A stretch of 64,000 nt of DNA from an uncultured Chloroflexia bacterium (GCA_963814115.1 CAWFBS010000008.1:430155-494154), one strand, 5' to 3'; positions 50,118 to 64,000 are shown, numbered from the stretch's first letter. Made by a program: numbers and translations. Notes: a model not told the origin generated them from the sequence alone.

Positions 50118-51800
50118 ATGTCCATCCAGCACCCGCTCAGCCTGGCCGAGGTCAAGCGCCTCGCCGGCCGCGCGGACATGATCCGTCTCCGGGCGAGCCG
50201 CGATGCCGACCTGGAGACGCCGATCGGCGCCTTCCTGCGGCTCGACGACGGTGCCACCCCTGCCTACCTCCTGGAATCGGTCGAGGGGGGCGAGCGGCTC
50301 GGCCGCTACAGCTTCCTCGGCACCGGACCGCGCCGACTGCTCGAGGTGCGCGACGGGGTGGCGCGCATCCAGGACCGGCCGGTTGGCGTCACTGCGTACG
50401 CACCCGACCTGCCGATCACCGCGTTTCCCGGGGCGGACCCGCTCGCCGCGCTCCGCGCCTTCCTGCCCCGAAGGGTGGTCGAGCCGGGTGACGGGATGCC
50501 GCGGTTCACCGGCGGAGCGGTGGGCGCGCTCGCCTACGACGCGGTGTCCGTGTTCGAGCCCAGCGTCCCGCTGCCGGCGGCCGATCCGGTCGGCGTGCCG
50601 CTCGCCAGCTTCATCGAGACCGACCTCGTCCTGGTCTTCGACCACCTGACGCACGAGCTGAGCGCGATCGCCTCGCTCCACACGGAGACGCCGCGCCTGG
50701 AGGAGCGCTACCGGATCGCGGAGCGGGCCATCTTCGAGGCACTCGAGCGGACGGCCCGCCCGTCCCCGGCGGAGATCGCGGGGGCCGCGGTCGGCGGGGC
50801 CGCCGGGTCGGTCCCGGTGGAGCGGCCGCCCGCGGCGATGGACGAGGCCCGGACCAGCCTGGGCCGCGACGCGTTCGAGACCGCGGTCCGGGCCGCCAAG
50901 GACGCGATCGCCGGCGGGGAGGCGATCCAGGTCGTGCTCGCGCGGCGTGAAACGCGGGCTCTGCCGGCCGGCCCGGACGGGCGTCCGGTGGACGGGATCA
51001 GCCTCTATCGGGCGCTGCGCCGGGTGAACCCCAGCCCGTACCTGTTCTTCGTCCGGACCCCGTCCTTCGAGGTGGTCGGCGCCAGCCCGGAGCTGCTCCT
51101 CCAGGTGGAGGGGGACCGAATGACCACGCACCCCATCGCCGGAACGCGGCCCCGCGGCGCCACGCCCGCCGACGACGCCCGCCTTGCCGAGGAGCTGATG
51201 GCCGACCCGAAGGAGCGTGCCGAGCACGTCATGCTCGTGGACCTGGGGCGCAATGACCTGGGCCGCGTGGCACGACCGGGCACCGTGCGCGTGTCGAAAT
51301 ACATGGAGGTCGAGCGCTACAGCCACGTGCTGCACCTCGTGAGCCACGTCGAGGGCCGGCTGGCGGCGGGGCTGGACGCCCTGGACGCGCTGCGCAGCGT
51401 CTTCCCCGCCGGCACCCTCTCGGGCGCCCCGAAGGTCCGTGCGATGCAGCTCATCGCTGCGGCCGAGCGCGAGCGACGCGGCCTGTACGGCGGTGCGGTG
51501 GGGTACCTAGGCTACGACGGAAACCTCGACACGGCGATCGCCATCCGGAGCGCCGTGCTCAAGGACGGTGTCGCCCACCTCCACGCCGGTGCCGGGATCG
51601 TCGCGGGGAGCGTGCCCGAGCGCGAGTTCGAGGAGACCGAGCACAAGGCTGCGGCGCTCCGCCGCGCACTCGAGCTGGCGGCCGGCACGGGCCGGGGACC
51701 GGCAGGGTCAGATCCGGCGGGGTCCGGTGCGGCCGGTCAGCCGGATTCGGCCGGCGCACCTGGCTCGGCGAGCGCTGCCGCGGTGGGGACCTCGCGGTGA
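50118..51800 (+). CDS. trpE: Anthranilate synthase component I
   Basis: 560 aa with chorismate-binding family motifs (LFFVRTPSFEVVGASPE, GAVGYLGYDG). GGAGG SD 9 nt upstream. Confidence 0.9.
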   Translation: MSIQHPLSLAEVKRLAGRADMIRLRASRDADLETPIGAFLRLDDGATPAYLLESVEGGERLGRYSFLGTGPRRLLEVRDGVARIQDRPVGVTAYAPDLPITAFPGADPLAALRAFLPRRVVEPGDGMPRFTGGAVGALAYDAVSVFEPSVPLPAADPVGVPLASFIETDLVLVFDHLTHELSAIASLHTETPRLEERYRIAERAIFEALERTARPSPAEIAGAAVGGAAGSVPVERPPAAMDEARTSLGRDAFETAVRAAKDAIAGGEAIQVVLARRETRALPAGPDGRPVDGISLYRALRRVNPSPYLFFVRTPSFEVVGASPELLLQVEGDRMTTHPIAGTRPRGATPADDARLAEELMADPKERAEHVMLVDLGRNDLGRVARPGTVRVSKYMEVERYSHVLHLVSHVEGRLAAGLDALDALRSVFPAGTLSGAPKVRAMQLIAAAERERRGLYGGAVGYLGYDGNLDTAIAIRSAVLKDGVAHLHAGAGIVAGSVPEREFEETEHKAAALRRALELAAGTGRGPAGSDPAGSGAAGQPDSAGAPGSASAAAVGTSR

Positions 51801-52564
51801 TCCTCGTGATCGACAACTACGACAGCTTCACCTACAACCTGGTGCAGGCGCTCCAGGCCGCCGGGGCAGAAGTCCGGGTCGTGCGCAACAACGCGATCGA
51901 CGTGCCCGGGCTCGCCGCGCTTGCTGCCGATCCGGCCGCCGCGCTGCGAGGGATCGTGATCTCGCCGGGGCCGTCGGACCCGGCACACGCCGGCGTTTCC
52001 GTCCCGGCGGTCACGTTCGCGGCCGAGCGCCACATCCCGCTCCTGGGTGTCTGCCTGGGCATGCAGTCGATGGCGGCCGCGTTCGGGGCGTCGATCGTCC
52101 GGGCGCCGACGCTCGTCCACGGAGAGGCTTCCGCAATCGAGCACGACGGCGCGGGCCTGCTCGCGGGCATGCCCGCGCTATTCCACGCAGCCCGGTATCA
52201 CTCGCTCTCCGTGGACCCGGAGACGGTGCCGCCGGAGCTGCTCGTGACCGCCCGGAGCGCCGACGACGGCGTCGTGATGGGGCTCCGGCACGCGACGCTC
52301 CCGATGGAAGGTGTCCAGTTCCACCCCGAGTCGGTGCTCACGCCCGACGGCCCGCACCTGCTCGCGAACTTCCTCCGCCTGGCCGGCGAGGGTGACGGGG
52401 CCCTGCTCGACGCCGCGGTGGGGTCGTTCGCCACCGGCGGGCTCGCCCCCGTCCAGGCCGCGGATGCCTCGGCCGGCGTCCCGTTGGCCGCGGCCGCCCC
52501 TGGCGCGGCGGCACCGGGAGCCGGCTCGGTCCCGGCCGTGCCGGCTGCGGGGGCGATCCGATGA
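51797..52564 (+). CDS. trpG: Anthranilate synthase component II / glutamine amidotransferase
   Basis: ILVIDNYDSFTYNL, catalytic GVCLGMQ and HPES motifs. GTGA overlap with the trpE stop. Confidence 0.9.
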   Translation: MILVIDNYDSFTYNLVQALQAAGAEVRVVRNNAIDVPGLAALAADPAAALRGIVISPGPSDPAHAGVSVPAVTFAAERHIPLLGVCLGMQSMAAAFGASIVRAPTLVHGEASAIEHDGAGLLAGMPALFHAARYHSLSVDPETVPPELLVTARSADDGVVMGLRHATLPMEGVQFHPESVLTPDGPHLLANFLRLAGEGDGALLDAAVGSFATGGLAPVQAADASAGVPLAAAAPGAAAPGAGSVPAVPAAGAIR

Positions 52565-53622
52565 GCGACGCGGTTCGGGCAGCCCTCGCGGCCGTGATCG
52601 ACGGGGAGACCCTGGACCGCGACCGAGCGCACGGAGCGATGGGCGCGGTGATGGACGGCGAGTCCACGCCGGCCCAGCTGGCTGCCCTCCTCGTGGCGCT
52701 GCGGATGCGCGGTGAGACGGTCGACGAGCTGGCGGGATTCGCGCAGGCGATGCGCGAGCGGGTCGTGCACGTGGCCGCGCCCCCAACGGCGGTGGATGTC
52801 GTCGGGACCGGTGGCGACGGCTCGGGCACCTTCAACATCTCCACGGCGGCTGCGCTCGTCCTCGCCGCGGCTGGTGTCCCGGTCGCCAAGCACGGCAACC
52901 GGGCGATCACCTCGCGGTCCGGCTCCGCCGATGTGCTCGACGCGCTCGGCGTGCGGATCGACCACGATGCGGACTCAGCAGCGGCCGCCTTGCGGAGCAT
53001 CGGCTTCGCCTTCCTGTTCGCGCCCGCGTTCCACCCGGCGATGCGCTACGCGGGGCCGACCCGCCGGGAGATCGGTGTCCGGACGGCGTTCAACCTGCTG
53101 GGTCCGCTGACGAATCCCGCCGGGACGCGGCGCCAGCTCGTCGGCGTCGGGGACCCGGTCGCTGCTCCGAAGCTCGCCGAGGTCCTCCGCGCCCTGGGCA
53201 CGGAGCGATCGCTCGTCGTGCACGGCGCGGGCGTGGACGAGCTCCCACTCGACGGGAGCGGCGTCATCCATGACGTCACGCCGGACCGCGTCGTGCGCCG
53301 GGAGGTCGATGTCGTTGCGCTCGGACTCAACGCTGCCGAGACCTCGCAGCTCGCGGGCGGGTCGCCCGTCGAGAACGCGGCGCTCGTGGACGCGATCCTC
53401 GCGGGAACGGAGCGCGGGCCGCGGCGCGACGTCGTCCTGCTCAACGCCGGTGCGGCCTTCGTGGCCGCCGGCCGGGCCGCCGACCTGGCCGGGGGCATCG
53501 CCCAGGCCGCCGACGTTCTCGACGCGGGGGCCGCATCGCAGCTGCTCCAGCGGCTTCGCGCCGAGCGGCGGTCGTCGGATGACGCGAGCGCGGCCCGCGC
53601 GGCGACGGAGGTTCGGGCATGA
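52561..53622 (+). CDS. trpD: Anthranilate phosphoribosyltransferase
   Basis: [16 protein letters not shown] and KHGNRA motifs. ATGA overlap with trpG. Confidence 0.9.
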
Positions 53623-63513: not shown

Positions 63514-63521
63514 GGCCGGGC

Positions 63522-64000
63522 TCAGGACCTGGATCCGGCTGCGGCGATTGCCCCGCCGCGGGGCGCGTGGAGCGACGCCGCCTGGGCGTGCACCGGCCGG
63601 ACGGCCGCCGCGAGTGCCGCGAACTGGTCGAGGGTCACCGACTGGTCCCCGTCGGAGAGGGCCTCCTCCGGGTGGGGGTGGACCTCGACCAGGAGGCCGT
63701 CGGCCCCGATCGCCGCCGCTGCGAGCGAGAGTGGGGCAACCAGCCAGCGCTTGCCGGTCGCGTGCGAGGGGTCGATCACGACGGGCAGGTGGGTGATCTC
63801 GTGCAGAAGCGGGACGGCGGTGATGTCGAGCGTGTTGCGCGTGGACGTCTCGAACGTTCGGATCCCTCGCTCGCACAGGATCACGTTCGGGTTGCCGCTC
63901 GACATCACGTACTCGGCGGCCATGAGCCACTCTTCGATGGTCCCCGACAGGGCACGCTTGATGAGCACCGGACGCCCGATCTTGCCGACGGCCATGAGCA
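63522..64000 (-). CDS. aroF: 3-deoxy-7-phosphoheptulonate (DAHP) synthase, type I-beta (KDO8PS-like), C-terminal part only; N-terminus beyond window edge
   Basis: [22 protein letters not shown] and [11 protein letters not shown] motifs match the I-beta DAHPS / KDO8PS family. The ORF runs to the window end, so it is incomplete. Confidence 0.7.

Follow-up and report, generated by a model that had tools for sequence, protein, structure and literature searches.

Positions 50118 to 64000 of a 64,000-nucleotide (nt) stretch of DNA from an uncultured soil bacterium of the Chloroflexia (GCA_963814115.1, CAWFBS010000008.1:430155-494154; the whole stretch that was analyzed is referred to here as the window) contain a tryptophan biosynthesis (trp) operon on the plus strand that converges with a cluster of shikimate pathway (aro) genes on the minus strand. 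A first-pass annotation had described this region as a complete shikimate operon running head-on into a complete trp operon and had suggested that the two might interfere with each other's transcription. In order to evaluate these suggestions, genes in the window were called with Pfam, and selected proteins were also compared with NCBIfam models. The G+C content is ∼72% throughout the window, and raw lists of open reading frames (ORFs) were therefore full of spurious frames, from which the real genes were resolved by Pfam. All of the genes on both strands were assigned by Pfam as the first-pass annotation had described them.

The order on the plus strand is trpE-trpG-trpD-trpC·F·B-trpA. The gene for anthranilate synthase component I, trpE (positions 50118 to 51800; Pfam Chorismate_bind, 1e-91; Anth_synt_I_N, 8e-28), starts at the ATG at 50118, after a GGAGG sequence. 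It is followed by trpG, encoding the glutamine amidotransferase component (51797 to 52564; GATase, 7e-55; 4-nt overlap with trpE); trpD, encoding anthranilate phosphoribosyltransferase (52561 to 53622; Glycos_transf_3, 2e-84, and Glycos_trans_3N); a single ORF for a 953-amino-acid (aa) fusion of TrpC, TrpF, and TrpB (53619 to 56480; IGPS, PRAI, and PALP, with the NCBIfam trpB model TIGR00263 above its cutoff); and trpA, encoding the tryptophan synthase alpha chain (56477 to 57370; Trp_syntA, 1e-67; TIGR00262). All of the junctions between these genes are 4-nt overlaps.

The minus strand carries, in the direction of transcription, genes for DAHP synthase, aroA, aroE, aroC, aroK·aroB, aroQ, and chorismate mutase. 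Of the gene for DAHP synthase, which is of type I-beta, only the 3' part (63522 to 64000, identified by translation) falls inside the window, and the C-terminal 158 aa that it encodes are 96% identical to the homologue at one of the closest related loci (L001). The remaining genes are aroA, for EPSP synthase (62164 to 63513, with an ATG at 63513; EPSP_synthase, 3e-102); aroE, for shikimate dehydrogenase (61274 to 62167; Shikimate_dh_N, SDH_C, and Shikimate_DH); aroC, for chorismate synthase (59973 to 61277; Chorismate_synt, 2e-110); a 560-aa fusion of shikimate kinase and 3-dehydroquinate synthase, aroK-aroB (58283 to 59965; SKI, DHQ_synthase, and DHQS_C); aroQ, for a type II 3-dehydroquinate dehydratase (57774 to 58286, with an ATG at 58286; DHquinase_II, 1e-50); and a gene for a monofunctional chorismate mutase of the AroQ class (57392 to 57781 with a GTG start or to 57754 with an ATG start; CM_2, 1e-20).

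The aroA/aroE, aroE/aroC, and aroKB/aroQ junctions are 4-nt overlaps, and there are gaps of 8 nt between the DAHP synthase gene and aroA and of 7 nt between aroC and aroKB. The exception is the junction between aroQ and the chorismate mutase gene, where there is an overlap of 8 nt with the GTG start and a gap of 19 nt with the ATG start. The description of the aro operon as complete needs qualification. Both the 5' end of the DAHP synthase gene and the operon's regulatory region lie beyond position 64000, so completeness cannot be demonstrated from the window alone, whereas the full DAHP synthase gene is present in relatives. A single unit that contains chorismate mutase as well as all seven shikimate steps is, as the first-pass annotation noted, uncommon; it is nevertheless not unique.

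In the TrpC-TrpF-TrpB protein, the TrpC (IGPS) domain spans residues 19 to 268, TrpF (PRAI) spans residues 289 to 486, and TrpB spans residues ∼543 to 947. Relatives of this protein are encoded in 462 genomes of the Limnocylindria type, as found in a scan in which each species was represented by a single genome. Full-length homologues occur in more than 120 protein clusters with 68 to 100% identity, and the few that are named are Candidatus Limnocylindrales. Among 1.84 billion clusters at 50% identity, only four representatives (P0121, P0127, P0129, and P0155) were collinear over all three domains. The fusion is real, found throughout the clade, and phylogenetically narrow. NCBIfam has models for bifunctional TrpC/TrpF, TrpF/TrpB, TrpC/TrpB, and AroK/AroB proteins and none for a trifunctional TrpC/TrpF/TrpB protein. 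The order of the TrpC and TrpF domains is the same as in the TrpC-TrpF protein of Escherichia coli, and, as in the bifunctional TrpF/TrpB (NF010376) and TrpC/TrpB (NF010375) families, TrpB follows another Trp enzyme in the same polypeptide. However, in contrast to known Trp fusions, three domains are combined here in one bacterial polypeptide and TrpA is separate. Multidomain Trp enzymes are found elsewhere, such as the five-domain protein of Euglena (PMC2395257). The AroK-AroB protein, with both domains in one ORF, matched the bifunctional NCBIfam models NF010627 and NF010556 over its full length at scores below their cutoffs (NF010627, residues 4 to 533, 212 bits versus a cutoff of 565). It shares the architecture of these families but does not qualify as an equivalog.

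The stop codon of trpA (57368 to 57370) and the stop codon of the chorismate mutase gene (57392 to 57394) are separated by a spacer of 21 nt (57371 to 57391), the distance given in the first-pass annotation. No terminator-like site was found at the junction with a consensus scan, and predicted folds of 56- and 111-nt windows around it, on both strands, were no more stable than those of dinucleotide shuffles (z scores, +0.7 to +1.8), so that scan and folding both bear out the earlier impression that there is no obvious terminator. An inverted repeat of 9 to 12 nt (57366 to 57377 and 57409 to 57420) was considered as a terminator and rejected; it has no U-tract and extends into the chorismate mutase coding sequence. 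The GC palindrome to which the first-pass annotation had drawn attention, GCCGCGGCCGC at 57371 to 57381, is not a special feature of the junction. The window contains 8 exact copies of this 11-mer and, with one mismatch allowed, 49 matches (37.5 ± 7.7 expected), and 8-nt palindromes composed only of G and C occur once per 244 nt. A repeat search did identify a 21-nt (seven-codon) tandem duplication that closes trpA (57331 to 57351 and 57352 to 57372; 86% identity), in which a CGA in the first copy corresponds to TGA, the trpA stop codon, in the second. The present end of trpA and the 21-nt junction may therefore stem from a recent duplication or deletion event.

In order to determine whether the arrangement is conserved, a check that the first-pass annotation had proposed, the window's 15 protein segments were mapped onto the corresponding loci of the best 80 of the 462 relatives. 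These 80 are all metagenome-assembled genomes, most of which are labeled Chloroflexota or Limnocylindria, and the identity of the TrpC-TrpF-TrpB relatives is 62 to 90%. The trpE-G-D-C-F-B-A genes, followed on the opposite strand by chorismate mutase-aroQ-aroB-aroK-aroC-aroE-aroA-DAHP synthase, were found at 58 loci. One additional locus had the same convergent layout with no detectable chorismate mutase gene, for a total of 59 convergent loci in as many species-level genomes, and at 6 loci with 5 to 9 kb of downstream sequence there was no aro cluster beside trp.

Because the arrangement recurs in 59 related species-level genomes, it is not an artefact and is not recent. Suspicion of a misassembly or of a very recent rearrangement might have arisen from the uncultured source, from relatives that are themselves all metagenome assemblies, and from a tandem duplication that lies exactly at the junction. 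However, 59 independent assemblies share this gene order and orientation, and they come from different studies and sequencing technologies and span protein identities of 62 to 90%. Synteny of this kind refutes such an explanation, which we regard as highly improbable.

The chance that the locus represents an aromatic supraoperon of the Bacillus type, with aro and trp genes cotranscribed as a nested unit, is smaller still and practically negligible. The aroFBH-trpEDCFBA-hisC-tyrA-aroE supraoperon of Bacillus subtilis is codirectional and cotranscribed, contains only some of the aro genes, and has its trp genes under the control of TRAP. The locus studied here resembles it in the linkage of genes for the common pathway with those for tryptophan synthesis, the aro and trp genes being adjacent, and in having leaders that appear to sense tRNA (see below). 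However, trp lies on the plus strand and aro on the minus strand, and no common transcript can encode both, since the two blocks converge; gene orientation thus rules out a supraoperon. Furthermore, the cluster lacks hisC, tyrA, and pheA, all seven steps of the common pathway are present, and control would be by a T-box and a leader peptide.

Gene order was much more constant than the distance between the operons. The stop-to-stop distance could be measured at 54 loci; its median was ∼1.6 kb, and its extremes were 1 and 7755 nt. Four apparent negative gaps (-948 to -70 nt), produced by stop codon extension on metagenome-assembled genomes with probable frameshifts, were left out. Only 4 loci had gaps of less than 100 nt (1, 18, 46, and 65 nt), compared with 14 at 300 to 1000 nt, 13 at 1 to 2 kb, and 23 at more than 2 kb. 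Even among the closest relatives (81 to 90% identity), the gaps were 1, 46, 301, 331, 606, 793, and 1375 nt. In most relatives the gap was occupied by unrelated genes on either strand, such as those for a nucleoside phosphorylase/GNAT protein (PNP_UDP_1 plus GNAT) and for a GluQRS-like truncated class I tRNA synthetase, as well as by genes for proteins without a Pfam match and, judged by reading the sequences, a sigma factor-like gene. What is conserved is the trp/aro neighborhood, and the stop-to-stop spacing is the least conserved feature of the locus. The interval between trpA and the chorismate mutase gene is a hot spot of gene gain and loss (e.g., L001, 7729 to 9103; L011, 13741 to 14769; L075, 7653 to 8324), and at many loci a conserved protein of ∼220 aa without a Pfam match is encoded directly after, or overlapping, the trpA stop codon.

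These results bear on the suggestion that the head-on junction is functional, with colliding RNA polymerases biasing the use of chorismate between the branches, which we consider improbable. In such a scheme, tryptophan starvation, with the trp leader switched on, would send antisense transcription into the chorismate mutase gene and aroQ, and phenylalanine or tyrosine starvation would send antisense transcription into trpA. The scheme is consistent with the 21-nt gap, the absence of a terminator-like site or of a hairpin better than shuffled sequence, and the gaps of 1 to 65 nt in four relatives. It also fits that the aro gene nearest the junction encodes chorismate mutase, which competes directly with anthranilate synthase for chorismate. 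Furthermore, the same group of organisms uses canonical hairpin-U terminators in its leaders, and the lack of a terminator at the junction is therefore not due to such signals being unused. However, a stop-to-stop distance that varies this widely, up to 7.7 kb and with unrelated genes inserted, counts against selected transcriptional interference, as do the gaps of up to 1375 nt in close relatives and the six relatives without an aro cluster beside trp. The presence of a dedicated sensor at the 5' end of each operon, described below, argues in the same direction. A weaker form of the proposal would apply only to genomes with tight junctions, in which T-box-controlled read-through from trp might damp chorismate mutase expression via convergent transcription.

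The leader of the trp operon extends over 330 nt from a promoter-like site to the trpE ATG. The promoter-like site, TTGACC-18-TAGACT (49758 to 49787, plus strand), is a consensus match only; the scan gave 2 sites with 0.2 expected. A T-box leader with a tryptophan specifier was identified on the plus strand at 49803 to 50076 (Rfam RF00230, 45.7 bits, E value of 6e-9, model positions 1 to 219). At the Rfam gathering threshold the only match in the whole window was a tRNA-Ser, and the T-box appeared only when an E-value threshold was applied. The specifier loop, GAA-UGG-A, lies near 49890, and AGAGA and AGUA elements align to conserved positions of RF00230. UGG specifies tryptophan. At 50030 to 50048, AAAUCGGGUGGCACCGCG represents the conserved T-box motif, AAnnnGGGUGGnACCGCG; its UGGC bulge corresponds to the UGGN of the motif, which pairs with the tRNA 3' end. 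Downstream, in both minimum free energy and centroid folds, there is a terminator-like hairpin, GACCGGCCGUUCGUCC-CGAGU-GGACGAAGGUCGG, followed by UUUCGUUGUCU (50056 to 50100, plus strand; hairpin, 50056 to 50089), ahead of the GGAGG ribosome-binding site at 50103 to 50107. The 5' arm of the hairpin overlaps the 3' part of the antiterminator region and aligns to the 3' strand of the last helix of RF00230, and the hairpin with UUUCGUUGUCU has the form of the mutually exclusive terminator of a T-box leader.

The T-box was also matched by Rfam at related loci (L001, L005, and L012; 42 to 53 bits). In 63/63 relatives, a T-box motif was present no more than 450 nt upstream of trpE, and 52 of them had the exact GAAUGGA specifier. 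In operation, uncharged tRNA-Trp would be read by the UGG specifier, and its binding would allow the antiterminator to displace the hairpin and U-rich tract before trpE so that the trp operon is transcribed; that is, the T-box is predicted to work by transcription attenuation. T-box control of trp genes is a known kind of control. As in the T-box trp operons of many Firmicutes and at trpE of Dehalococcoides, a T-box with a UGG specifier lies directly upstream of trpE, with a terminator hairpin after it. The leader contains one T-box, in contrast to the tandem T-boxes reported for some bacilli. The leader differs from those of known T-box trp operons in being very GC-rich and scoring below the Rfam gathering threshold, and the operon it precedes differs in carrying the TrpC-TrpF-TrpB fusion. 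T-boxes upstream of trpE have been described in the Chloroflexi, in Dehalococcoides (PMC2494555), which belongs to the same phylum.

A tRNA-Ser(UGA) gene (48357 to 48442) is separated from the trp T-box by a gene for an MpaB/Lcp-type oxygenase (48658 to 49662; Pfam PF09995, 6e-53). At the related locus L005 (5964 to 6446), a tRNA at the corresponding position is only ∼130 nt upstream of the T-box, and the oxygenase gene therefore resembles an insertion beside a tRNA gene.

The aro operon also appears to have a leader of its own, seen in relatives at the position that lies beyond 64000 in the window. It was studied at the 25 genome loci for which the region ahead of the DAHP synthase gene was available and on metagenome contigs (L081 to L200), which were found by scanning with a pattern that consisted of only an invariant helix and a terminator arm and that matched at least 120 contigs. 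Overall, the leader is conserved at no fewer than 145 loci. In 25/25 genome loci, a TTGACA-type promoter-like site is followed a few nt later by an ORF of 11 to 12 codons rich in phenylalanine and tyrosine and then by a canonical terminator (e.g., L005, 20987 to 21200 on the minus strand, and also L009 and L012). Examples of the encoded peptide are MDAYFYFRTPA, MRQFFFYEHPA, and MNAPYWFTPPA; the ORF ends in Pro-Ala-UGA. In the closest relatives of the window (L001, L004, L007, L123, and L127; 83 to 93% identity), the peptide is VQAHH(L/F)FFMDPA, and the window's own genome presumably carries the same kind of leader. The ORF is followed by an invariant sequence, CCCGGCAUGA, which includes the stop codon, a covarying variable hairpin, and the invariant complement, GUCGUGCCGGG. 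The terminator, AGCAGAGG-loop-CCUCUGC and then U5-7, begins 1 to 5 nt after GUCGUGCCGGG, and its hairpin and U-tract are invariant. The terminator lay 35 to 114 nt upstream of the DAHP synthase start at 25/25 genome loci and, among the metagenome matches listed, at 119/120 loci; the DAHP synthase gene started within 250 nt downstream of the leader motif in 108 of the 110 listed contigs that were long enough.

Codon usage in the leader ORF, which was not part of the search pattern, was counted in 120 distinct leaders among the matches listed, to which all of the following counts refer. The codon at position -5 from the stop codon was Phe or Tyr in 120/120 leaders, that at -7 in 108/120, and the codon at -6 was aromatic in 93/120. 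Phe, Tyr, and Trp made up 32% of the 102 distinct leader peptides, compared to 3.6% of the aro and trp proteins of the window, and the ratio of the Phe codons UUU and UUC was 121:120 in the leaders versus 2:85 in the aro and trp genes of the window. A second mini-ORF, present in 116/120 leaders, has an AUG that overlaps the UGA of the first ORF (AUGA), and its stop codon (UAG, UGA, or UAA) falls within the variable hairpin's loop. It comprises 5 to 7 codons, six in 105 of the leaders, while the loop sequences differ. The second mini-ORF suggests that termination-reinitiation is part of the switch.

No Rfam family matched the aro leader, even at an E value of ≤1. In relatives, the leader has the short ORF with codons for the end products and the intrinsic terminator before the first structural gene that are expected of a leader peptide attenuator. 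The aro operon (DAHP synthase-aroA-aroE-aroC-aroKB-aroQ-chorismate mutase) would thus be controlled from its own 5' end by a ribosome-dependent attenuator, and the leader is predicted to act by transcription attenuation. The available features suggest that it works like a leader peptide attenuator, although one defining feature, the 2:3 antiterminator, was looked for and not found.

The nearest documented parallel is in Corynebacterium glutamicum, in which, as the work of Neshat et al. (2014) is summarized in two papers (PMC11802643, PMC7356990), an aroR leader (Phe-Tyr-Phe) lies upstream of the DAHP synthase gene aroF, and expression increases when ribosomes stall for lack of charged tRNA under phenylalanine limitation. 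The two systems share a short Phe/Tyr leader ORF immediately upstream of a DAHP synthase gene, and many of the Limnocylindria leaders contain F-Y-F. However, the Limnocylindria leader precedes an operon with eight functions, whereas aroR precedes aroF and few neighbors, and it differs in its invariant CCCGGCAUGA/GUCGUGCCGGG helix that includes the stop codon, its second mini-ORF, and the lack of an identified antiterminator. The two-ORF variant of the Phe/Tyr leader attenuator is apparently undescribed.

Regulation of the first enzyme would add to this control. The full DAHP synthase gene at L005 encodes 354 aa and scored 466 bits with NCBIfam NF006421 (cutoff, 335). The protein aligns from residue 1 with PDB 1RZM, 3PG9, and 1VR6, over residues 1 to 329, and is a type I-beta enzyme with a catalytic barrel and an N-terminal domain of ∼70 aa homologous to that of 1RZM and 3PG9. 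We take these structures to be the DAHP synthase of Thermotoga maritima, in which the N-terminal domain binds tyrosine and phenylalanine. Because this regulatory domain of the Thermotoga enzyme is present, the enzyme encoded here is probably feedback inhibited. T. maritima resembles the present case in this type I-beta DAHP synthase and its regulatory domain and presumably also in its aro cluster, with an AroK-AroB fusion, a type II dehydroquinase, and the order DAHP synthase-aroA-aroE-aroC-aroKB-aroQ, as here. Unlike the present operon, however, the T. maritima cluster appears to include a prephenate dehydrogenase gene and is not known to have a chorismate mutase gene at its end, and no leader peptide attenuator or convergent trp operon is known at that cluster.

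The interpretation that we favor, to which we would assign a probability of roughly 0.75, is that trp and aro are two separate, independently regulated operons that are neighbors in the Limnocylindria and that the 21-nt junction is a lineage-specific state of a variable gap rather than a conserved regulatory element. Each operon appears to have its own amino acid-specific attenuator at the 5' end, which is enough to explain its regulation, and the tight junction is probably a local accident and not a regulatory device. The first-pass proposal of an interference device between pathways that compete for chorismate was not supported by these comparisons, given spacing that is the least conserved feature and falls below 100 nt at only 4/54 loci, unrelated genes in the gap, and separate 5' attenuators.

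Several observations weigh against the interpretation of two independently regulated operons. The T-box score of 45.7 bits is below the RF00230 gathering score of 93, and the U-tract after the trp leader hairpin (UUUCGUUGUCU) is imperfect. Neither operon has a canonical terminator at its 3' end, even though the organism clearly uses such terminators in leaders, and mutual read-through of each transcript into the other operon is possible in this genome; because no terminator separates the operons, interference is possible for this one genome. The aro leader was seen in relatives only and lies outside the window. In addition, no classical 2:3 antiterminator was found in the aro leader by constrained folding, folding of truncated transcripts, alignment folding, or inspection by eye. 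With ribosome masks placed at the first or last aromatic codon or at the stop codon, the terminator stayed the minimum-energy structure in 25/25 leaders. In transcripts truncated before the 3' arm of the terminator, the 5' arm paired only with the pyrimidine-rich stretch of Phe/Tyr codons, a pairing that extends the invariant helix and forms only when no ribosome is there. A stalled ribosome would cover this stretch, and the regulatory sign would therefore be wrong. Together, these approaches, in which pairing between the 3' arm of helix P1 and either terminator arm was inspected by eye, gave only weak, nonconserved alternatives. Frameshifting by +1 and stop codon read-through into the terminator were also considered and were dropped, as the required downstream stop codon or frame was not conserved.

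Tentatively, and with the odds against it, the aro leader could instead be a nonclassical ribosome-dependent attenuator in which the two overlapping mini-ORFs decide the folding of the CCCGGCAUGA/GUCGUGCCGGG helix, which in turn sets the terminator. The aromatic-rich ORF would be the sensor, and the six-codon ORF would start at the AUG that overlaps the UGA and stop in the hairpin loop. Whether the adjacent terminator works would then depend on the folded helix and not on a 2:3 antiterminator. The helix might act on RNA polymerase, or it might extend into the pairing between the Phe/Tyr codons and the 5' arm of the terminator. In the closest relatives of the window (L001 and L005), the helix arm occurs a third time, as CCCGGCACGG, which is complementary to GUCGUGCCGGG and is located after the terminator and immediately ahead of the DAHP synthase ribosome-binding site (L005, ∼20990 to 21030, minus strand); this copy was not seen in more distant relatives, and it might tie the leader to DAHP synthase translation.

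Elsewhere in the window, the plus strand encodes a GH65 glycoside phosphorylase (44276 to 46774) followed by a HAD family hydrolase (within 47002 to 48096), which have no relation to the trp and aro genes. Such a pair is typical of maltose or trehalose phosphorylase with beta-phosphoglucomutase.

The two operons favored here are conventional, and every element is of a known kind. What is mildly new is the occurrence of a complete eight-function aro operon beside trp across an uncultured class, the trifunctional TrpC-TrpF-TrpB protein, and the two-ORF variant of the Phe/Tyr leader. Limnocylindria are an abundant, uncultured class of soil and freshwater bacteria, and this locus provides a compact view of their control of aromatic amino acid synthesis. 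One neighborhood encompasses the entire common pathway and tryptophan branch as well as the Phe/Tyr branch point, and its two operons would sense different charged tRNAs through distinct RNA mechanisms. Concrete features that lend themselves to testing are the clade-wide TrpC-TrpF-TrpB fusion and the two-ORF aro leader. Collision of the operons would, if true, be a case of control of a metabolic branch point by convergent transcription; given the comparative data, it seems unlikely that such collision is a selected feature.

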